From NCBI GenBank assembly GCA_022826185.1, contig JAJDVH010000145.1, positions 2,951 through 66,950 of the forward strand: a DNA stretch of 64,000 bases, written 5' to 3'. A model generated the notes under the pieces. It made no database searches. It worked only from the letters and a program-made list of their open reading frames with translations, and had not been told where the DNA came from. The stretch's first letter is position 1, and the number at the start of each line of letters is the position of its first letter. Both the position numbers and the translations under genes were made by a program. This stretch comes from Alphaproteobacteria bacterium (lineage in GTDB: Bacteria > Pseudomonadota > Alphaproteobacteria > Bin95). Of the stretch, positions 46,529 through 64,000 are shown one piece after another.

Positions 46529-46607
46529 CCGGCGGCCCATGGACCTGCCCGCCCGCCTGCGCCATATGTTTGCCCCATCCGGCAGTCCGCCGCTAAGGTC
46601 GCCCAGT

Positions 46608-49028
46608 ATGGAACTTCTGCAATATATCGACCGACGCCCGGAGCCCAGAGAGGCGCTGGCGCTTGCCGATTGCGGCGACCTTGAGGGCCTGATGGATGCG
46701 GCGGCCCGGCTGCGCGACCGGCTGCACGGACCCCGGATCAGCTATTCGCGCAAGGTGTTCATCCCCCTGACGCATCTCTGCCGCGACGTCTGCCATTACT
46801 GCACCTTCGCCAAGCCGCCGCGCCGGGGCGAGGCCGCCTACATGACGCCGGAACAGGTGCTCGACATCGCGCGGGCGGGCGCAGCGGCCGGCTGCAAGGA
46901 GGCGCTGTTCACGCTCGGCGACAAGCCGGAGCGGCGCTACCGCGCGGCGCGGGAGGCGCTGGCCGAACTCGGCTACGAAACGACGCTCGACTATCTGAAG
47001 GCGATGGCGAAGCTGGTCTTCGAGGAGACCGGCCTGCTGCCGCACCTCAATCCCGGCCTGATGACGGCGGAAGAACTGGCGGGGCTGCGCGGCGTCTCGG
47101 CCTCGATGGGCATCATGCTGGAGAGCGCCTCGGACCGGCTCTGCGAAAAGGGCATGCCCCACTACGGCTCGCCGGACAAGCTGCCCGCGCGCCGCCTTGA
47201 GACCATCCGGCTCGCGGGCGAGGCGAAGGCGCCGTTCACTTCCGGCATCCTGATCGGCATCGGCGAGACGCGGCAGGAGCGCATCGAGGCGCTGCTGGCG
47301 CTGCGGGACATCGACGACGCCACCGGCGCGGTGCAGGAGATCATCGTCCAGAACTTCCGCGCCAAGCCGGACACGAAGATGGCCGCCGCGCCGGAGCCCG
47401 GCCCGGAAGAACTGCTGTGGACCATCGCCGTTGCGCGGCTGGTCTTCGGCCCGGCCGCCTCGATCCAGGCGCCGCCGAACCTGTCGCCGGGGGCGCTCGG
47501 GCCCATCGTGGCGGCGGGCATCGACGACTGGGGCGGCGTCTCGCCGGTGACGCCGGATTTCGTCAACCCTGAGGCGCCCTGGCCGCATCTGGAGACGCTC
47601 GCGCGCGAGACGGCGAAGGCCGGCAAGCAGCTGGTCGAACGGCTGACGGCCTATCCGCGCTATCTGGACGGTGAGTGGCTGGCGCCGGCCATGCTGACGC
47701 GGGCCCTGCAGCTCTCCGATTCCGATGGACTGGCGCGGCCGGACGACTGGTCGCCGGGCGAGCTGACGGCGCCCGAACCGATCCTGAGGCGGGGCGCGGC
47801 GAGCGCCGATGTCGCGGCGGTCCTTGCGGACGCCGAAGCGGGCGCGCCGCTCGACGAGGCCGGGATCGTGCGGCTGTTCCAGGCCCGCGACGACGATTTC
47901 CACGCCGTTGCCGAGGCGGCCGACCGGGCCCGCGCGCGGCTTGCGGGCGACACCGTCACCTATGTGGTGAACCGCAACATCAACTACACCAATGTCTGCT
48001 ACTTCAAATGCCAGTTCTGCGCCTTCTCGAAGGGCAAGCTCTCCGAGAACCTGCGCGGGCGCCCCTACGACCTCGACCTCGACGAAATCCGACGCCGCGT
48101 GGCCGAGGCCTGGGACCGGGGGGCGACCGAGGTCTGCATGCAGGGCGGCATCCATCCCGACTATACGGGCCGCACCTATCTCGACATCCTGGACGCGGTG
48201 AAGGAGGCCGCGCCCGACATTCATGTCCACGCCTTCACGCCGCTCGAAGTGTTCCAGGGCGCGCACACGCTCGGGGTTTCGGTCGAGTCCTTCCTGCGCG
48301 ACCTGAAGGCGGCCGGCCTCGGCACGCTGCCGGGCACGGCGGCGGAAGTGCTGGACGACGAGGTGCGCCGGATCATATGCCCGGACAAGATCGACACGCA
48401 GCAATGGCTGGATGTCATGGAGACGGCGCACGGGCTCGGCATCCGGTCCACGGCGACGATCATGTACGGCCATGTCGAGCGGCCGGTCCACTGGGCCCGC
48501 CACCTGCTGCGCCTGCGCGCCCTCCAGGCGCGCACGGGCGGCTTCACCGAGTTCGTGCCGCTGCCTTTCGTCCACATGGAGGCGCCGATCTACCTGAAGG
48601 GCCGGGCGCGCAAGGGGCCGACCTTCCGGGAGGCGGTGCTGATGCACGCCGTCGCGCGCCTCGCGCTCGCGCCGCACTTCGTCAACATCCAGACCTCCTG
48701 GGTCAAGATGGGGCCGGAGGGCGTTTCGGCGGCGCTGGCGGCCGGCGCGAACGACCTCGGCGGCACCTTGATGAACGAGAGCATCACCCGCGCCGCCGGC
48801 ACGGTCCACGGGCAGGAAATGGCCCCGCACCGCATGGAGGAGACCATCCGCACGGCCGGGCGCCGGCCGGAGCAGCGCACCACGGATTACGGCCGTCCGC
48901 CGGAATTGCAGGTCCTGCGCTCCCGCCAGGCCGCGCCGCTCGCCGAGGTGGTGGAAACGCCGGCCCGCAAATACGAGCGCGCCGGCCCCCGCACCCTCTA
49001 CCGCCCGGGTTTGACTGCGGCGGAGTAG
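46608..49028 (+). CDS. fbiC: FO synthase (7,8-didemethyl-8-hydroxy-5-deazariboflavin synthase), fused CofG/CofH radical-SAM domains
   Basis: Two radical-SAM CxxxCxxC motifs (CRDVCHYCTF; CYFKCQFCAF). About 800 aa. Confidence 0.85.
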   Translation: MELLQYIDRRPEPREALALADCGDLEGLMDAAARLRDRLHGPRISYSRKVFIPLTHLCRDVCHYCTFAKPPRRGEAAYMTPEQVLDIARAGAAAGCKEALFTLGDKPERRYRAAREALAELGYETTLDYLKAMAKLVFEETGLLPHLNPGLMTAEELAGLRGVSASMGIMLESASDRLCEKGMPHYGSPDKLPARRLETIRLAGEAKAPFTSGILIGIGETRQERIEALLALRDIDDATGAVQEIIVQNFRAKPDTKMAAAPEPGPEELLWTIAVARLVFGPAASIQAPPNLSPGALGPIVAAGIDDWGGVSPVTPDFVNPEAPWPHLETLARETAKAGKQLVERLTAYPRYLDGEWLAPAMLTRALQLSDSDGLARPDDWSPGELTAPEPILRRGAASADVAAVLADAEAGAPLDEAGIVRLFQARDDDFHAVAEAADRARARLAGDTVTYVVNRNINYTNVCYFKCQFCAFSKGKLSENLRGRPYDLDLDEIRRRVAEAWDRGATEVCMQGGIHPDYTGRTYLDILDAVKEAAPDIHVHAFTPLEVFQGAHTLGVSVESFLRDLKAAGLGTLPGTAAEVLDDEVRRIICPDKIDTQQWLDVMETAHGLGIRSTATIMYGHVERPVHWARHLLRLRALQARTGGFTEFVPLPFVHMEAPIYLKGRARKGPTFREAVLMHAVARLALAPHFVNIQTSWVKMGPEGVSAALAAGANDLGGTLMNESITRAAGTVHGQEMAPHRMEETIRTAGRRPEQRTTDYGRPPELQVLRSRQAAPLAEVVETPARKYERAGPRTLYRPGLTAAE

Positions 49029-49189
49029 GGTCTGCGGCGCGCGGCGCTGCGCGGGCCGGGCAAAGCAACGGCAGCGAGTATGAACCGACAAGCCGTTCCC
49101 GCCGTCCGGGACGGCGGCGGAGACCCCCTGCGAGGATGTCATGTTTTGTCATGTTCCGTCATGCGGCCCTCCCGAAATGTCATGTTTTG

Positions 49190-49297
49190 TCATGCGGGAC
49201 CGTCTCCACCGGGCTGTGCGGCCAGGGCTCCCGCGGCGGGCGCGAGCCTTGCGGCCAGCATCGCCGCCAGTTGGGGGCGAGGGTCGGTTTCGGTCAT
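49190..49297 (-). CDS. repeat-encoded small ORF (35 aa) with strong SD AAGGAGG
   Basis: MTETDPRPQLAAMLAARLAPAAG.... The N-terminal 20 aa are conserved in copy 2, partly in copy 3. C-termini diverge. Confidence 0.3.
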   Translation of the reverse strand: MTETDPRPQLAAMLAARLAPAAGALAAQPGGDGPA

Positions 49298-49531
49298 GCA
49301 TGCCTCCTTTCGGGCAAAGGGCGGGACAGGGGTGTCCCTGTTTTGCGCGCGTTTCGCGTGCGGGCGCGGGCGGGTGTCGGCGCCGGCGCGGTTCGCGCGC
49401 CTGATTGCGCGCGCGAGACGCAGGACGCACCTCTCGCGCTTGCTCACGCCGGGGGCTTTTTCGGCCCCCAGCCGGTCGCTTTCTGCAGAAACGCCGAAAG
49501 GCGGCCCCGGAAGCCGCCTCTCTCTACTTTC

Positions 49532-49558
49532 ATCATACACCAGACCGCCAAATGTCAA
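49532..49558 (-). promoter_or_regulatory. sigma70-like promoter in repeat copy 1 (TTGACA-N15-TATGAT)
   Basis: Conserved position in all three repeat copies. Spacer 15 nt, slightly short. Confidence 0.35.
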
Positions 49559-49813
49559 GCCCGGCCAGGAACAAAAAATGAAATATCCGGACATTTTTCA
49601 TGGGTCGCCGGTTGAAACGAAGCCCGGACCCGATCCGGAACCCTGACCCGCGCCACCGCCGCAGCCAGTGGACAGCGGGCTCAAACGCCGAAGCGCCCGT
49701 TGGTATTATCCATCTATCCGGTCTGTACCGCCGAACGCCCTCAACATGAGTCTTGGATCGCGACCGCTGATATTACGCAACTCTACCGCCGAGCGGCGCG
49801 GCTTCCCGCCGAA

Positions 49814-51406
49814 TCACGCCCCCGCCAGGATCATCTCCGCGGCCTTCTCGCCGATCATGATGGAGGGGGCGTTGGTGTTGCCGGAGGTGAGGGTGGGCAT
49901 GATCGAGGCGTCGGCGACGCGCAGCCCCTCCATGCCGTGGACGCGGAGCCGGTCGTCCACCACCGCCATCGGGTCGGAGCCCATCTTGCAGGTGCCGACC
50001 GGGTGGTAGGTGGTCTCGGCATTCTCCATCACCCAGGCGATCAGCTCGTCGTCGCCTTCCAGCTTCTCTCCGGGCGCCATTTCCTCGCCGACGATGCCCT
50101 CCAGCGCCGGCGCGCCCATCAACTGGCGGGTCATGCGCATGCCGCCCAGCGTGATCTCCCGGTCGATCTCGGCGGAGAGGAAGTTGAAGCGGATTTCCGG
50201 CGGCGCGGCCGGGTCTGCCGAGGCCGCATGGATGCTGCCCGTGCTTTCCGAGCGCAGCGGATGGGTGATGACCGTGATCCCCGATTCCTTCGCCAGCTTG
50301 AAATTCGGGGTGGCGAGGAAGGGAATGAACGACATCATGGCGTCGGGACTGGCAAGGCCCGGCCGGGTGCGGATATAGGCGCGGACCGGCGAGGCCGGCA
50401 GGCTCAGCAGGCCCGACTGGGCGCCCGCGAATTTCAGCGCCTGCCAGACGAGGCCGAGGCCGCGCGCCCTGTCATTGTAGGTCAGGCCCTTTGCGGGCAC
50501 GCGCCATTTCATGCGCGGCGCGTAATGGTCCCGCAGGTTCTCGCCGACGCCCGCGAGCTCGTGGACGACGGGGATGCCGAGCGCGTTGAGCCGGTCCGGC
50601 TGGCCGATGCCGGAGACCTCCAGCAATTGCGGCGAGGCGACGGCGCCCGCGCTTACCACGACCTCGGCGTCGGCATGGGCCTCATGCACCTCGCCGCCGC
50701 GCCGGTAGCGCACGCCGGTGCAGCGCCGGCCCTCGAACAGCAGCGCCTCCGTCGCGGCATTGGCGCGGATGTCGAGGTTGTGCCGCGAGCGCACCGGGTC
50801 GAGGTAGCAATGCGCCGTGCTCATGCGCCGCCCGCCGGAGATCGACGCCTGCGTCATGCCGATGCCGTCCTGCGAGGCGCCGTTATAGTCGGCATTCCAG
50901 GCGAGGCCGATTTCCCGCCCTGCGCCGATGATCGCGTCGTAGAGGGGGCCGCTCTCGGTTAGGTCGGAGACCTTCAGCGGGCCGTTGCGGCCGCGATATT
51001 CGTCCTCGCCGCCGGCATAGCTCTCCATCTTGCGGAACAGCGGCAGCACGTCGCGGTAGGACCAGCCGCGATTGCCGAGCTGCGCCCAGCCGTCGAAATC
51101 CTCCGCCTGGCCGCGCACGAACACCATGCCGTTGATGGCCGACGAGCCGCCGAGCAGCCGCCCGCGCGGCACGGGAATGCGCCGCCCGCCGGTGCTCTCC
51201 TCGGGTTCGGAGGAGTAGAGCCAGTTGGCGGCGGGGTTGTCGATCAGCCGCGCGAAGCCCACGGGGATGCGCGACCAGGGATGGCTCGACCGGCCCGCCT
51301 CCAGCAGCAGCACGCGCTTCGCCGGGTCCGCCGACAGCCGGTTCGCCAGCGCCGACCCCGCAGACCCCGCCCCCACGACGATATAGTCGAACCGCTCTTC
51401 CGCCAT
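49814..51406 (-). CDS. GMC family oxidoreductase (choline dehydrogenase-like)
   Basis: FAD-binding GAGSAGS N-terminus. GMC signatures. Start at MAEERFD. Confidence 0.85.
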   Translation of the reverse strand: MAEERFDYIVVGAGSAGSALANRLSADPAKRVLLLEAGRSSHPWSRIPVGFARLIDNPAANWLYSSEPEESTGGRRIPVPRGRLLGGSSAINGMVFVRGQAEDFDGWAQLGNRGWSYRDVLPLFRKMESYAGGEDEYRGRNGPLKVSDLTESGPLYDAIIGAGREIGLAWNADYNGASQDGIGMTQASISGGRRMSTAHCYLDPVRSRHNLDIRANAATEALLFEGRRCTGVRYRRGGEVHEAHADAEVVVSAGAVASPQLLEVSGIGQPDRLNALGIPVVHELAGVGENLRDHYAPRMKWRVPAKGLTYNDRARGLGLVWQALKFAGAQSGLLSLPASPVRAYIRTRPGLASPDAMMSFIPFLATPNFKLAKESGITVITHPLRSESTGSIHAASADPAAPPEIRFNFLSAEIDREITLGGMRMTRQLMGAPALEGIVGEEMAPGEKLEGDDELIAWVMENAETTYHPVGTCKMGSDPMAVVDDRLRVHGMEGLRVADASIMPTLTSGNTNAPSIMIGEKAAEMILAGA

Positions 51407-51819
51407 GTCGATTTCCTCCCCCGGTGCCCGTCGGCTCCGCCCGCTGGACCGAAAGTCCTCCAGATTGGACCGTATTTCGGCCCTGTCCACAATTCTCAAG
51501 CAAGCCCGCAAGGACGGGACTGCAAGCTAACTGTACACACGCCAGGCAATTGCGACGACAAGGGCGAGTAGGATCCCGATCATCCAGAGCAACTGGCGGA
51601 GCGAGCGCTTGAGCGCAGCGAAAGCCGGGTCGAAGCTATTCTCGGCTGCCGCGTTTCTGGCCGGTTTCACGCCTTTCCCATCCGCCACGTTGCCCCCTTC
51701 CTCCAAATCCCGGCTCAATATCGATTCAGTTATACCCGCGGTCGTCGACCGGAACCCATGACAGATTCGACGCCTGCCGCCCGATCGCCCCCTTCCGTCA
51801 TGCCCGAACGCCCCTCTCC

Positions 51820-51905
51820 GTCATGCCCGGACTTGTTCCGGGCATCCATGCGGCCGTGCGGCGGAAGCGGTGGAGGGGGATGCCCGGAACAAGTCCGGGC
51901 ATGAC
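51820..51905. repeat. pair of near-identical 10-bp-stem palindromes (CATGCCCGGA-N5-TCCGGGCATG) in opposite orientation, about 30 bp apart
   Basis: GTCATGCCCGGACTTGTTCCGGGCATCC at 51820-51847 and its reverse complement at 51878-51905. Lies between repeat copy 2 and the GMC oxidoreductase gene. Confidence 0.5.
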
Positions 51906-51989
51906 GTGAAGGGGCATGACAGGAGAAGGCGCGGCGTGAAGAGGGCCGGGGCGGCGGTTGGGGGCGTGCGCGGCAAGGACCCCTGCGAG

Positions 51990-52570
51990 GATGTCATGAA
52001 TTGTCATGTTTTGCCCGGCGCGCTCCGGTCCGGGCATGCGTTCAGCGCTCCAGTCGAGCAGGGCGAGGAGCTGTCTCGGATGGGCGAGGGCGGCGCGTCC
52101 GGCGCGGCGGCGGTCGGCGTCCGCGCGGCGGTCCGCCGGCGGCGGCGCTGCGCCCATGTCCTCCGCACAGGCTTCGGCGAGGGCTTCGGCGGCGGGCGCG
52201 AGCCTTGCGGCCGGCATCGCCGCCAGTTGGGGGCGAGGGTCGGTTGCGGTCATGCGTGCCTCCTTCGGGGCAAAGGGCGGGACAGGGCGTCCCTGTTTTG
52301 CGCGCGTTTCGCGTGCGGGCGCGGGCGGGTGTCGGCGCCGGCGCGGTTCGCGCGCCTGATTGCGCGCGCGAGACGGCGGACGCACCTCACCCGTCCGTTC
52401 CCGCCGGGGCTTTTTTTCGGCCCCCAGCCGGTCGCTTTCTGCAGAAACGCCGAAAGGCGGCCCCGGAAGCCGCCTCTCTCTACTTTCATTCTACACCATG
52501 CCGCCAAATGTCAAGCCCATCGGGAACAAAAAATGAATATTCCGGCCAATTTTCTCGCATTCCGTTGAAT
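51990..52570. repeat. copy 2 of the intergenic repeat element (with about 150-bp internal expansion)
   Basis: Shares the core ...gccagttgggggcgagggtcggtt.cggtcatgc ... gcggttcgcgcgcctgattgcgcgcgcgag ... ccaaatgtcaagcc with copy 1. Confidence 0.6.
52489..52514 (-). promoter_or_regulatory. sigma70-like promoter in repeat copy 2 (TTGACA-N15-TAGAAT)
   Basis: Same position as in copy 1. Confidence 0.35.
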
Positions 52571-52597
52571 CGGCGGGATAGCCGAGCGCCCCGGCCC

Positions 52598-53050
52598 TCA
52601 GAACTCGCGGTGGAAGAGCAGCTCCAGGCGGGTCTTGCGGTAGTCGTGAAGCTGCGCATTGGTCTCCCGGAACTCCCGGACGAGCGCAAGCCGGGGGCTG
52701 AAGCCGAACAGGGTCCAGCCGCGATTGCCTCCCGTCAGCCGCCAGGCGCGGGTGAGGTCGCGGCGCGGGGCGCCGTCCGGGGTGTGGGGCCACCAGTCGC
52801 CTTCCCAGCGCGTGCGGCGCAGCTCCAGGCTCGCGCCCGCCGCGAAGCCGCGCGGCAGCAGGACCGACGCGCCGAGGCGGCCCCAGCGCGTCCGGTTGCG
52901 CAGCCATTCCGCCTCCGCGCGCTCGCGGTCGTAGCCGAGCGCCCCTTCCAGCCGCGCCCAGGGCGCCGGCAGCCACGCCGCATACCCGCCGAGCTGGACG
53001 GCCGGGCCGTCATGGCCGTCATAGCCGGACGCGAACTCCGGGCGTAGCAT
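52598..53050 (-). pseudogene. 3' fragment of an outer-membrane beta-barrel protein gene, truncated at junction with low-GC insertion
   Basis: 150-aa ORF ending in aromatic ...LLFHREF with no signal peptide. Reading frame dissolves exactly where GC content drops at 53050. Confidence 0.5.
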
Positions 53051-53900
53051 CCGCAGCGCGAATTTTGATGGTCGGTGTTGTCCAGTTGCTCTACAAGGAA
53101 GCCAGAGAGGAGATTTTCATCTACCACCTTTTTGTAGATGCTAATGCTTTAAGAGCAGTGACACCGTGAGAGCACGCAAACGGGTGATTTAGAAAGGAGC
53201 GTGTTAGGATTATAAGTGTTCTTTTGCCCAGAGGAGGGCTGTAAGCGCGGCATTCTTGGCTTCATCCTCAGACATATATCGGTGATGGCCGGTCTGCTTC
53301 TTACCGGTTTGTCTGTTCGTGACCTGTAGTCCCCAGAAATTTCTGCGGCGATCTGACGTTTTGAATACTGTAAGGTTAAAGCCTTCGGTGTTTAGGTATA
53401 GATTTCCTTTCGTAGATATCCGCCATTTCCTATTCGCCCATGCCTGACGCCGCCGAACTTGGGAACGGACTTTGTTCTCGCGTATCCGTGGATTAACGTA
53501 GTCACCCTCCATATGTTCTGCACAAATACAACCGACACCGAGAATGTCCGGGTAGTCGGGGTGCTTCATAAAGTGAACATATCGGATTTCCACACTCTCG
53601 CACATTTCACAAAATTGAGAAGGTTCCCCCAAGTCGTCTATATCAACGCATGACCAGCCGCGATGGGGGACGCCAGATTCAGACCATTTCCCGCGATTTG
53701 TGTGTTTGTCAGTCGTCATGGCGAGTCCGTCAAGTCTTAGCCTCTAAGAGGGAGGAGGCCAGCAGAGCATTGTGAATTTTCTTTCTTATCGTCGTTATGG
53801 CACTTCGAAGGAGTCTGCCCTCAGTACCACTGAGTCCCAGCTGTGGCGAAAGGGCCAGACAATACCATAATGAGAGAAAGAGGGATGCTCAGCAATAGTG
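53051..53900. mobile_element. ~850-bp low-GC (about 45%) foreign insertion carrying one small gene
   Basis: Abrupt compositional change. Disrupts the adjacent outer-membrane-protein gene. No integrase, tRNA or flanking repeats seen. Confidence 0.45.
53210..53719 (-). CDS. Cys/His-rich hypothetical protein, possibly HNH-like zinc-finger nuclease
   Basis: CEMC-x8-HFMKHP-x9-GCICAEH arrangement (CxxC...H...H...CxCxxH). 169 aa. Low GC. Confidence 0.45.
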   Translation of the reverse strand: MTTDKHTNRGKWSESGVPHRGWSCVDIDDLGEPSQFCEMCESVEIRYVHFMKHPDYPDILGVGCICAEHMEGDYVNPRIRENKVRSQVRRRQAWANRKWRISTKGNLYLNTEGFNLTVFKTSDRRRNFWGLQVTNRQTGKKQTGHHRYMSEDEAKNAALTALLWAKEHL

Positions 53901-61099: not shown

Positions 61100-61840
61100 C
61101 TACCCCGCCTCCATGTCATGCACGGCCCAGCAGACCCATGTGGTCCACCAGCCGTTGACCTCGAGGCCGGCGGCGGCCTGGAGGGCGCGGAGCGCGGCGT
61201 CGGAGCGCGGGCCCCAGACGCCGTCCACGGGGCCCGGAGCGAAGCCGAGCCGGGCGAGCGCGCGCTGGCGGCCCTCCGGCATCCAGACATCCGACCACAC
61301 GTCCGGAATCTCCGGGTCGTCGTAGATCGCGCGCAGCACCCGGGCGAAGGGGAAGCCCAGCACGTCCTGCTTCCAGGTCGGGCAGAGGTCGTGGTGGCCG
61401 TGATGGTCGCGCGGCCCGATCCCCGGCCAGCGGGCGGCGATCTCCCGGCCGACCGCCGCCATCATGGCGATCTGCTCCTCCGTCCAGGGCTCCACCCTGA
61501 AGATGCGCCGGCCGTCGGGCGTCGCGGCCTCGATCCAGTCCGGACCCGCCGGCACGCCCTCGCGCGCATAGCCGATATTCACCGTCTCGATGCCGATGCA
61601 GGCGCGCGCGCCCTTGGTGCGGGCCGTCGAGGGCCGGCCGTCCCAGCGCAGCGTCTGCTCGACGCCGGCATGCCAGGAGCGGTTGGCGAGCGAGACATAG
61701 CGCGACACGCCCTCGGCGAAGCTGCGTCCGACGGCGTAATGGGCCGAGGCCTGTCCCTTGCGCTCCGGCTCGGCGCCGCCGAGCAGGCGGTCGCAGGCGG
61801 CGAGGTCGTATGTCGCCGTCCAGTGCCATGTGACGCCCAT
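61100..61840 (-). CDS. N-acetylmuramoyl-L-alanine amidase (Amidase_2/AmpD-like) with C-terminal peptidoglycan-binding domain
   Basis: Amidase_2 pattern. C-terminal PG_binding_1 (ALARLGF..VDGVWGPRSDAALRALQ). Start placed at MGVTWHW because the upstream M codons lie in the repeat element. Confidence 0.7.
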   Translation of the reverse strand: MGVTWHWTATYDLAACDRLLGGAEPERKGQASAHYAVGRSFAEGVSRYVSLANRSWHAGVEQTLRWDGRPSTARTKGARACIGIETVNIGYAREGVPAGPDWIEAATPDGRRIFRVEPWTEEQIAMMAAVGREIAARWPGIGPRDHHGHHDLCPTWKQDVLGFPFARVLRAIYDDPEIPDVWSDVWMPEGRQRALARLGFAPGPVDGVWGPRSDAALRALQAAAGLEVNGWWTTWVCWAVHDMEAG

Positions 61841-61964
61841 CGGCCGCCCGCCCGTCGCCTTCGTCCAGCCCCGCGAGACCGCATGGCCCCTGCCGAGCGG
61901 GATGCGGGAGCGTGCGTCTGTGCGGAAACCCTCCGGCAGCGGCGCCGGCCGCGTATCGGGGGAC

Positions 61965-62345
61965 TCCGGCGATGTGTCATGAAATGTCATGTTTTGTCAT
62001 GCGGGGCTGTCTTAGCGGGGCTGCGCGGCCGGCGCCGCCGCCGGTGCGGGGCGGGGTCGGTTGCGGTCATCTGGTCTCCTTTCCGGTCGGGGAGGGCGGT
62101 CCCTTTGCCGCGCGTATCGCGCGGGGGCGCGGGCGCGCCTTTGCGCCGGCGCGGTTCGCGCGCCTGATTGCGCGCGCGAGGCGGAGGGCGCACCTCTCCC
62201 GTCGGTTCTGCGGGTGTTTTTCCGGATCCGGGGGAAGCGGCTCCGGATGCCCCTTCCCTCTATTGACACCATACTACAGGATCGGTCAGAGTCAAGCCCC
62301 GTTCCGAACAAAAAGTAAATATCAAGGACATTTTTCATGGGACGC
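61965..62345. repeat. copy 3 of the intergenic repeat element
   Basis: Shares the core with copies 1 and 2. Minus-strand promoter TTGACT-N16-TATGGT at 62268-62295 and SD+ATG at 62070. Confidence 0.6.
62268..62295 (-). promoter_or_regulatory. sigma70-like promoter in repeat copy 3
   Basis: TTGACT-N16-TATGGT in the same relative position as in copies 1 and 2. Confidence 0.35.
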
Positions 62346-62444
62346 CGAGGGTGACGACAAGGGGGGCGCGGTGACTCAACAGACAGGCGGGGAAGGAGTT
62401 TTCCGGCTGCAACCGGCGGCGACACCGATCGGCAGGCGCGGGAC

Positions 62445-64000
62445 TCACACGGCGGTCCGGGCGAGCGCGCTCCGGATCATCGCCTCGGTCTCGGCCAGCC
62501 CGTAAAGCGCGGCGAAGGAGCCGAAGCGCGGCCCCTGCTTGCGCCCCAGCAGGACTTCGTAGAGCGCGGCGAACCATGTCCTGAGCGGCTCGAAGCCATG
62601 CGCCTTGCCGACGGCGTAAACATCCGCCTGCACGGTCTCGCCGTCCGCATCGCGCGGCAGCGCCGCCAACCGGTCGGCCAGCTCCGCCAGCGCCGCGGCT
62701 TCCTTCGCGTCCGGGTCGCGCCAGACCTTCTGCGGGGCGACGAAATCGCGGCAGTAGGCAACCGCGAAATCCGCCAGCCGGTCCAGTTGCGGCCGCGTTT
62801 CCGGCGACGTCCCCGGGTCGTAGCGCGAGATGAAGCCCCAGAGCGTGTCCTTGTCCCGCGCGTCGCTGGCCGCCGCCAGGTTGAGCAGCAGCGAGAAGGA
62901 AATGCCCTCCTCCGGCTCGGGCGGCGCGCCGCCGTGGATGTGCCAGGCGGGATTTTCCAGCCGCTTCTCCTCCTCTTCGCCGACGGCGCGGGCGAGGAAG
63001 GCGCGATAGTCGTCCACGGCGCGCGGGATGACGTCGAAATAGAGCCGCTTCGCCGCCTTCGGCTTCTGGAACATGAACAGCGCCAGGCTCTCCTCCGGGG
63101 CATAGGTCAGCCATTCCTCGATGGACAGGCCGTTGCCCTTGGACTTGGAGATCTTCTCGCCGCGCTCGTCGAGGAAGAGTTCGTAGATGAAGCCCTCCGG
63201 CGGCCGGCCGCCGAGCGCCCGGCAGATGCGCCCGGAGAGCCGGACCGAGTCGATCAGGTCCTTGCCGGCCATCTCGTAGTCCACGTCGAGCGCCCGCCAG
63301 CGCATCGCCCAGTCGGCCTTCCATTGCAGCTTGCACGCGCCGCCGGTGACCGGCTGTTCGACCCGCCGGCCGCCCTCGTCCTCATAGACGACGGTGCCGG
63401 CGTCCGGGTCGCGGTGCAGGATCGGCGCCTGCAGAACGACGCCCGTCTTCGGGCAGACCGGCAGGAAGGGGCTGTAGGTCTCCCGGCGCTCGGGCCCGAG
63501 CGTCGGCAGCACGATTTCCATGACCGCATCGTAGGCCCGCAGCACGCCGAGCAGCGTCTCGTCGAACCGGCCGGAGCGGTAGCACTCGGTCGCGCTCACG
63601 AATTCGTAGTCGAAGCCGAACCGGTCCAGGAACGCGCGGAGCCGGGCATTGTTGTGCGCGCCGAAGCTCTCATGCGTGCCGAAGGGGTCGGGCACGGAGG
63701 TGAGCGGCTTGCCGAGATGGGCCTCCAGCGCCTCGCGGTTCGGCACATTGTCGGGCGCGCGGCGCAAGCCGTCCATGTCGTCGGAAAAGGCGAACAGCCG
63801 GGTGGGCGCGTCGGAGAGCTCGGCGAAGGCGCGGCGCACCATGGCCGTGCGCGCCACCTCGCCGAAGGTGCCGATATGCGGCAGGCCGGAGGGGCCGTAG
63901 CCCGTCTCGAACAGCGCATAGCCCTTGTCCGGAACGCCCCCGCCAAGGCGCGCCAGCAGCTTGCGCGCTTCCTCGAACGGCCAGGCGCGGGCGGAGCTTG
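62445..64000 (-). CDS. lysK: lysine--tRNA ligase, class I, 5'-partial (continues past the window end)
   Basis: KISKSKGN (KMSKS). Upstream translation ...[20 protein letters not shown] gives the HIGH-type motif. N-terminus beyond 64000. Confidence 0.85.

Follow-up and report, generated by a model that had tools for sequence, protein, structure and literature searches.

An undescribed, apparently mobile DNA unit with its own promoter and a phased direct-repeat end in sponge-associated Alphaproteobacteria

Three copies of a dispersed repeat

The window analyzed here is a 64-kb stretch (64,000 nucleotides) of contig JAJDVH010000145.1 from the alphaproteobacterial assembly GCA_022826185.1. It includes fbiC on the plus strand, which ends at 49028, and, on the minus strand, genes for a GMC oxidoreductase (49814-51406) and an amidase with a peptidoglycan-binding domain (61100-61990), and a class I lysK gene ending at 62445. 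Three copies of a repeat lie beside these genes: copy 1 is convergent with fbiC, and copies 2 and 3 lie upstream of the GMC oxidoreductase and amidase genes, respectively. An initial sequence-only reading of this DNA had placed the copies in these contexts, correctly, and had proposed a shared minus-strand architecture of promoter, hairpin-rich leader, Shine-Dalgarno (SD) sequence and short open reading frame (mini-ORF) ending in direct repeats; every feature it listed can be read from the minus strand at 48900-49800. A profile hidden Markov model (HMM) made from the wider family detects three copies in the window and no more, each of them on the minus strand. Copies 1 and 2 share 85-93% identity over three blocks (repeat finding and three-way alignment) while copy 3, in the three-way alignment, is 62-82% identical with indels. 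All three copies contain, without a mismatch, the 26-nt core GCGCGCAATCAGGCGCGCGAACCGCG, which does not occur in shuffled sequence.

Copies 1 and 2 are separated by just 2.9 kb and, at 85-93% identity, might be taken for a simple local duplication or a chance resemblance at this locus. This is refuted by the presence of at least 109 dispersed loci with the exact core (from a scan of one genome per species) in at least a dozen metagenome-assembled genomes (MAGs), and copy 3 is orthologous in four other genomes; the copies are clearly not restricted to the locus, and local duplication is an explanation to which we give practically no weight. Loci were gathered by exact match to the core, and the anatomy described below was drawn from 113 copies. 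Among the loci listed, the hosts are about a dozen uncultured Alphaproteobacteria MAGs, partly sponge-derived, with at least 7-16 copies per long-read MAG. One source of the family, APA_bin, is part of the Aplysina aerophoba sponge MAG set (PMC11706023). Copies are spread over megabases of long-read chromosomes, and many are found at short-read contig ends, as repeats are.

The suspicion that the family is unannotated was well founded. Rfam returned no match at gathering threshold over the whole window, and in E-value mode over 48800-52800 the sole match was a chance hit to mir-145 on a different palindrome, caused by the hairpin at 51786-51920. Viral contigs gave no exact-core match, blastn with copy 1 against phage and plasmid collections gave none either, and no description of the family was found in the literature. 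The repeats are regarded as decayed copies of an undescribed, apparently mobile DNA unit that is common in sponge-associated Alphaproteobacteria.

Promoter, leader RNA and phased array

A complete unit would consist of a left end, a sigma70-type promoter, a leader of ~230 nt, a ribosome-binding site (RBS) with ATG, a cargo gene, and a CATGAC array with its tail. Both ends are sharp. On the left, homology begins ~200-220 nt before the core with the motif CATGAAAAAT-nTCC and an AT-rich stretch, which in copy 1 is opened by CATGAAAAAT and extends for ~45 nt upstream of the -35 hexamer; on the right, it stops with the array and a tail of ~20 nt. The promoter hexamers read initially from the window are present in the copies, and the spacer can now be specified as 15 nt, except in copy 3, where it is 16 nt. 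A consensus scan reported only the promoter of copy 3 because it demands a spacer of 16-18 nt. Across the family the -35 element is TTGACA or TTGCAT and the -10 element TATGAT, TAGAAT or TACAAT, often with TG ahead; these hexamers and the upstream TG are retained and the spacer sequence diverges.

The leader is made up of a 5' stem-loop (H1), a variable second hairpin, an A-rich linker and a GC-rich domain. H1 (GAGGCGGC/GCCGCCUU) is found family-wide and starts a few nucleotides after the -10 hexamer. Since MAFFT misaligns its 3' arm between subfamilies, it was assessed on an in-register subset of 48 copies and by arm-swapping. In the in-register alignment 89% of cells are paired and four of nine pairs have changed on both sides, so the covariation check suggested at the outset comes out in favor of this hairpin. 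Its covariation score of 0.227 (shuffled mean 0.136) was attained in none of 500 shuffles, and slid-register controls reach at most 60% paired. Chimeric 3' arms cost 3 kcal/mol on average, that is, each copy's own arms fold more stably. Of the other two hairpins initially taken as conserved, GGGGGCC-GAAAAA-GCCCCC is restricted to the subfamily of copies 1 and 2, whereas CGCGCGC-AAUCAG-GCGCGCG shows no variation at all across copies and its pairing is consequently neither supported nor opposed. The GC-rich domain (~110 nt) is nearly invariant, in part as an artefact of choosing loci by the core, and contains a long-range helix with some covariation; applied to the whole 371-column leader alignment, RNAalifold retrieved nothing beyond the invariant hairpin and a single long-range helix whose covariation is weak. 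Downstream of the conserved RNA domain come a purine-rich RBS and an ATG, with GGA-rich tracts ahead of the SD sequence in some subfamilies, and no terminator-like site is present on the minus strand after this domain.

A conserved promoter in front of a structured, multi-copy RNA is also what a family of trans-acting “cuckoo”-type small RNA genes would present, the ORF and repeats then being incidental. However, no intrinsic terminator follows the conserved domain, the RNA continues into a strong RBS, which in intact copies is followed by a conserved protein gene, and Rfam gives no match. A free-standing small regulatory RNA, one of the options first entertained, is thus unlikely, since the transcript would run straight into the SD sequence and ATG, and a multi-copy trans-acting family seems very improbable indeed.

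Could the conserved leader instead define a regulon, as a riboswitch-like, antitermination or translational control element that does not move? The ~110 nt of strong conservation, the supported 5' hairpin, the SD sequence and ATG directly after it and the GGA-rich tracts of some subfamilies would all be in keeping with such a role. Against this stand the genes that follow the copies, called with a gene caller based on GC content at third codon positions (GC3): they are functionally unrelated, and among 84 copies the downstream gene is co-directional in 47 and convergent in 37 (joint classes: (+,+), 20; (+,-), 18; (-,+), 17; (-,-), 9). The suggestion that the repeat is not simply the leader of a downstream gene agrees with these counts, on which that candidate was rejected. 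Furthermore, the repeat includes promoter DNA and the AT-rich region upstream of it, is present in many near-identical copies per genome as well as in tandem and mini-copies, is present or absent at orthologous sites, and matches no Rfam family. A non-mobile regulatory leader is accordingly judged improbable.

Every complete unit closes with two to five CATGAC(A)NNN units, runs of three being commonest, followed by a conserved tail, A(C/T)nTCGCnGGGGTC(T/C)CC. The GTCATG direct repeats seen initially in the window are real (ACATGACA, five occurrences against 0.49 expected) and correspond on the element strand to CATGAC units 10 bp apart; in copy 1 the unit spacings are 10, 21, 10 and 10. Family-wide, consecutive units are spaced by 10 bp (n = 252), 21-22 bp (n = 18) or 32-33 bp (n = 17) and almost never by 20 or 30 bp, which places all units on one face of the DNA helix. 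Such phasing suggests that the array is bound by an oligomeric DNA-binding protein, and is not what an RNA motif would be expected to show. As 10 is congruent to 1 modulo 3, three units also provide an ATG and overlapping TGA in all three frames. A Pho-box-like array driving an antisense promoter was considered and dropped: the period is 10 and not 11 bp, and on the plus strand the array has no -10 hexamer after it.

The family further includes solo arrays, tandem units and mini-units made up of promoter, H1 and array. At L019 5865-6880 (minus strand), a single promoter and H1 stand ahead of several central-domain modules, one full and three partial, and CATGAC arrays recur at a spacing of ~302 bp; this contig carries the label Bryobacterales (Acidobacteriota), and mis-binning or transfer is possible. 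At L077, ~1560-1900 nt downstream of the core, an apparent IS66-family transposon was identified by eye inside a CATGAC array, its inverted-repeat ends GTAACTGCCCAGGATG adjoining CATGAC units on both sides.

Cargo genes and differences between related genomes

Full-length members encode one of two conserved multi-copy proteins, a 326-aa protein resembling the small terminase subunit (TerS) or an orphan of ~200 aa, each as a single gene among metabolic neighbors. The 326-aa protein has a Terminase_2 domain at residues 11-80 (1.2e-12) and forms at least 363 clusters at 90% identity, with 64-93% identity over the full length and several paralogs per genome. Its profile matches in the PDB are solely TerS DNA-binding domains, including that of phage SF6. 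Phage TerS proteins align only with residues 7-121, and PHROG TerS families are matched. AlphaFold predicts with confidence only a helix-turn-helix and one long helix, with no catalytic domain, and PADLOC gave no match. In every member the last codons are encoded by the array, so that the protein ends in ...HD(K/R/I)(T/S). The ~200-aa protein (at least 155 clusters) starts with MTATDPRPxLAA; it has no Pfam domain and no fold match, and only weakly matches a PHROG of unknown function. Termination in the array extends to short ORFs, of which 64/90 analyzed stop at an array TGA; many have similar endings, such as ...HDKT, HDIS or HDIP, because their stop and last codons lie within it.

The window copies encode no Terminase_2 domain, and the TerS-like cargo is confined to a sister subfamily. 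Their ORFs match the N-terminus of the ~200-aa protein, of which copy 1 keeps 22 residues, joined to residues out of context, and copy 2 ~75, the frame being shifted in copy 3. With this N-terminus and both ends of the unit kept, the three copies are best read as derivatives, through internal deletion, of a single-gene unit that is lineage-specific and multi-copy. The peptide start MT(A/E)TDP reported initially is indeed found in all three copies, but in copy 3 a 1-nt deletion after codon 6 takes the rest out of frame. Similarly, AAGGAGG stands 5 nt ahead of the ATG in copy 1, as described, but is replaced by GAAAGGAGAC in copy 3. With the frame broken in copy 3 and C-termini that are unrelated, the mini-ORF is not a conserved peptide. 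The proposal of a leader peptide does not survive, the mini-ORF being a 5' remnant of a gene for a conserved ~200-aa protein that is intact in other copies. In copy 3 the TGA stop of the mini-ORF (61989-61987) falls within the second CATGAC unit.

The presence of a TerS DNA-binding domain like that of SF6, followed by a long helix, in a gene that always ends in the array raises the question of whether the arrays are dispersed pac-like packaging or recognition sites. The TerS-like protein would bind the arrays, a phage, satellite or gene transfer agent terminase would begin packaging chromosomal DNA at numerous points, the promoter and leader would serve only to express the cargo genes, and in the window copies the sites would still be live although the genes are dead. 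Phasing at one helical turn suits an oligomeric, DNA-wrapping protein, the ~200-aa protein matches a phage protein family of unknown function, and the TerS of SPP1 recognizes a specific pac region (PMC5615212). The likeness to the phage systems (SPP1 G1P and its SF6 homolog) thus comprises the N-terminal domain of the sister-subfamily cargo and a specific site at or in the gene, as pac often is. However, no large terminase (TerL) or other phage gene adjoins any copy examined, there are dozens of sites per genome, and the gene is missing from the window copies. At twice the usual size, the protein has a conserved C-terminal half unlike TerS, likeness to real TerS being limited to the N-terminal 70-110 residues. 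Viral contigs have no match to the core and the phage collection none to copy 1 DNA. Packaging sites would also leave unexplained both the insertion polymorphisms and the conservation of promoter and RBS in copies without a gene, and we consider this explanation unlikely.

The unit comes and goes between related genomes, as three presence/absence differences demonstrate (window/L030, L030/L007 and L060/L099). L030, a long-read MAG that shares ~89% identity with the window, aligns collinearly on either side of copy 3 and lacks the segment that carries this copy. There the lysK stop codon overlaps the GTG start of the amidase gene (GTGA; GCC GCG TGA / GTG AAC CCG GCA CTG CCG GCG GAC), while in the window the two genes are parted by the 496-bp copy 3 segment, with a CTGCCG direct repeat on both sides. 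The amidase ORF of the window starts at the ATG in the second CATGAC unit (61990) and reads MTFHDTSPESPDTRPAP followed by LPEGFRTD...; this ATG overlaps the TGA of the mini-ORF as ATGA (61990-61987). The element is also found at this site in four other genomes; the amidase is in frame with an array ATG in all five, two of which have a frame-preserving 24-nt indel. L030 in turn has a copy upstream of lysK where L007 has just 57 nt with a single CATGAC unit, and the copy of L060 is replaced by 24 nt in L099. A further metagenome contig from the Joint Genome Institute (JGI), 88% identical to the fbiC region, carries an element downstream of fbiC (L117 4352-4551, plus strand) in the orientation opposite to copy 1 and at a different distance, homology ending 12 nt past the fbiC stop codon.

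Promoter-bearing miniature inverted-repeat transposable elements (MITEs) are exemplified by the Correia elements of Neisseria, short, non-coding or decayed, multi-copy intergenic repeats with outward promoters, effects on the expression of neighboring genes and presence/absence polymorphism. The unit likewise is a multi-copy, decayed intergenic repeat with a promoter that is present or absent between relatives. Unlike Correia elements, it has no terminal inverted repeats but direct ends (CATGAAAAAT on the left and the CATGAC array on the right), is larger (0.4-0.6 kb), includes a long, structured leader together with an RBS and start codons, and has intact relatives that encode a TerS-like or orphan protein and not a transposase. 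Of the features by which MITEs are recognized, it displays dispersed copies with sharp shared ends and polymorphism at orthologous sites, but not inverted repeats matching a parent insertion sequence (IS). In ISs with outward promoters, such as those of ISAba1-type activation, a gene comes to be driven by mobile DNA that has inserted upstream of it; these ISs encode a transposase, have inverted repeats and supply neither an RBS-linked mini-ORF nor start codons. In the class 1 integron platform, the Pc promoter and a short ORF in attI (ORF-11) couple translation to the first cassette. The unit resembles this arrangement in having a fixed promoter and a short, well-initiated ORF whose termination would aid downstream translation, but it is dispersed and itself apparently mobile, has no integrase, attI or attC, and offers ATG/TGA repeats in three frames, which is not an integron feature. 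No integrase lies beside the copies, and the tandem tyrosine integrases at L104 and L112 belong to another inserted element. In lacking terminal inverted repeats, transposase, integrase and att sites, the unit falls outside the definitions of MITEs, ISs and integrons. The “miniature mobile element that brings its own promoter” that was among the first suggestions fits best, given the dispersed copies, sharp ends and three presence/absence differences, one of them with a 6-bp direct repeat.

Possible effects on neighboring genes

The reading we favor, with a probability of roughly 0.6, is that of a non-autonomous mobile cassette with an outward promoter and leader, whose mini-ORF and array could hand ribosomes and a start codon to the downstream gene. 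The unit would move as DNA, through a recombinase acting in trans or by illegitimate recombination. Its promoter is predicted to fire outward, and ribosomes translating the mini-ORF would terminate at a TGA within one of the CATGAC units and reinitiate at an ATG that overlaps it or lies next to it, so that the element could supply the next gene with promoter, translation initiation and start codon. Copy 3 appears to contain the complete series of promoter, SD sequence, mini-ORF, ATGA and amidase. For copy 2 the one plausible effect is transcription into the GMC oxidoreductase gene, which lies 580 nt away across another palindromic repeat, and from copy 1 the only product would be RNA antisense to the fbiC 3' end. 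The phased array may be foremost a protein-binding site, for which the TerS-like protein is the leading candidate.

Several observations weigh against this reading. Because 37/84 copies (44%) face a convergent gene, gene activation is not the general role of the unit. Exact ATGA coupling with a long downstream gene is limited to four independent loci among the 47 co-directional copies, namely the amidase locus (in five genomes) and three others, which is not above chance, and translational coupling as a general rule was not supported on these grounds. The 15-nt spacer of copies 1 and 2 is suboptimal for sigma70, and the invariance of the core is partly an artefact, because the loci were picked by exact match to it. 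The units encode no transposase or recombinase and no parent transposase was found; terminal inverted repeats were not found, nor were any seen at the copy 3 junctions, and the ends are in direct orientation. Of the polymorphic sites, only the copy 3 site shows a clean direct repeat and two have replaced or remnant sequence, so that no target-site duplication of consistent length was found, and at the copy 3 site a precise deletion in L030, in place of an insertion in the window lineage, is possible.

More tentatively, the unit could represent a new class of mobile element, an expression cassette with phased direct-repeat ends that are recognized by a domesticated TerS-like protein and not by a transposase; we think this possible but doubtful. 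Its 5' hairpin would be stabilizing, its ATGA stop/start would be available in three frames, and its spread would rewire genes with new promoters and N-termini. If the interpretation of a mobile cassette is correct, these repeats shape gene expression and gene order in an uncultured clade of sponge symbionts and are missed by current annotation. They would constitute a natural mobile unit that brings promoter, translation initiation and start codon, and in the window the element would have separated lysK from the amidase gene within their operon and given the amidase a new start. Two conserved orphan protein families, one with a terminase-like DNA-binding domain, would be tied to a defined DNA site, and the element would explain the contig breaks of short-read MAGs at these positions. 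It also brings a risk of wrong start-codon calls and of spurious ORFs such as MTKHDIS. Wrong-strand long ORFs are in any case common in DNA of 68% GC, e.g., 46593-49142 (minus strand) and 49080-49646 (plus strand), and some begin at array ATGs (MTSSQGVS...), which constitutes an annotation hazard. The parts of the three window copies are collected in Table 1.

Table 1. Location of the three window copies and of their component features.
Feature	Coordinates	Strand	Details
Copy 1, whole unit	~49116..49625	-	Convergent gap between GMC gene and fbiC
Copy 1, left-end motif CATGAAAAAT	49593..49602	-	Family-level homology begins here
Copy 1, promoter-like site	49532..49558	-	TTGACA (49558-49553), 15-nt spacer, TATGAT (49537-49532)
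Copy 1, hairpin H1 at leader 5' end	49494..49525	-	GAGAGGCGGC-UUCCGG-GGCCGCCUUUC
Copy 1, central conserved leader domain	49335..49440	-	Includes invariant 26-nt core, 49387-49412
Copy 1, SD sequence and mini-ORF	49190..49309	-	AAGGAGG 49309-49303, ATG 49297, stop 49190, 35 aa
Copy 1, CATGAC array and tail ATCCTCGCAGGGGGTCTCC	49116..49194	-	Units at 49194, 49184, 49163, 49153, 49143
Copy 2, whole unit	~51975..52575	-	ORF keeps ~75 codons of ~200-aa cargo gene
Copy 2, promoter-like site	~52514-52488	-	TTGACA, 15-nt spacer, TAGAAT
Copy 2, core, ATG and array	Core 52342-52367; ATG 52253; CATGAC units 52008, 51998	-	
Copy 3, whole unit	61940..62435	-	496-bp segment absent at orthologous lysK-amidase junction of L030
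Copy 3, promoter-like site	62268..62295	-	TTGACT, 16-nt spacer, TATGGT; 1 found, 0.0 expected
Copy 3, mini-ORF	61987..62070	-	27 codons, frame-shifted remnant
Copy 3, CATGAC array and tail	61940..62001	-	Units at 62001, 61991, 61981

The GMC oxidoreductase gene (49814-51432) has orthologs with 84-95% amino acid identity in at least three other contexts, including dxs-tlyA-luciferase-aldh-GMC in L110, L113 and L114 and others in L111 and L112. At the nucleotide level, homology extends from ~26 nt ahead of the ATG to the stop codon, a pattern resembling relocation of the single gene. That this gene moved with copy 1 or copy 2 as a composite unit was considered and found to be without evidence, since its homology stops at the RBS and stop codon and since at L110 the element shows 82% identity and the gene 92.5%. 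What appears to be the same integrative element interrupts the leader after the core in L104 and follows the GMC gene in L112; two tandem tyrosine integrases belong to this element, and one of its ends resembles GCACCTTYGGTGCTAA.

Between copy 2 and the GMC gene lies the hairpin at 51786-51920, which belongs to a separate repeat family. It is near-perfect, ~130 nt long (-91 kcal/mol) with arms GTCATGCCCGGAC...GTCCGGGCATGAC, and its family is found in 16 fetched loci, often within or next to the element. On the other side of copy 2, a SlipAM (surface lipoprotein assembly modifier) barrel is represented in the minus-strand stretch 52598-53050 by its 126 C-terminal positions alone; this stretch, likely a truncated pseudogene, ends ~25 nt upstream of the left end of the copy. 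A 169-aa ORF at 53210-53719 (minus strand), with no Pfam match and 48.8% GC against 68.3% for the window, is probably foreign DNA.

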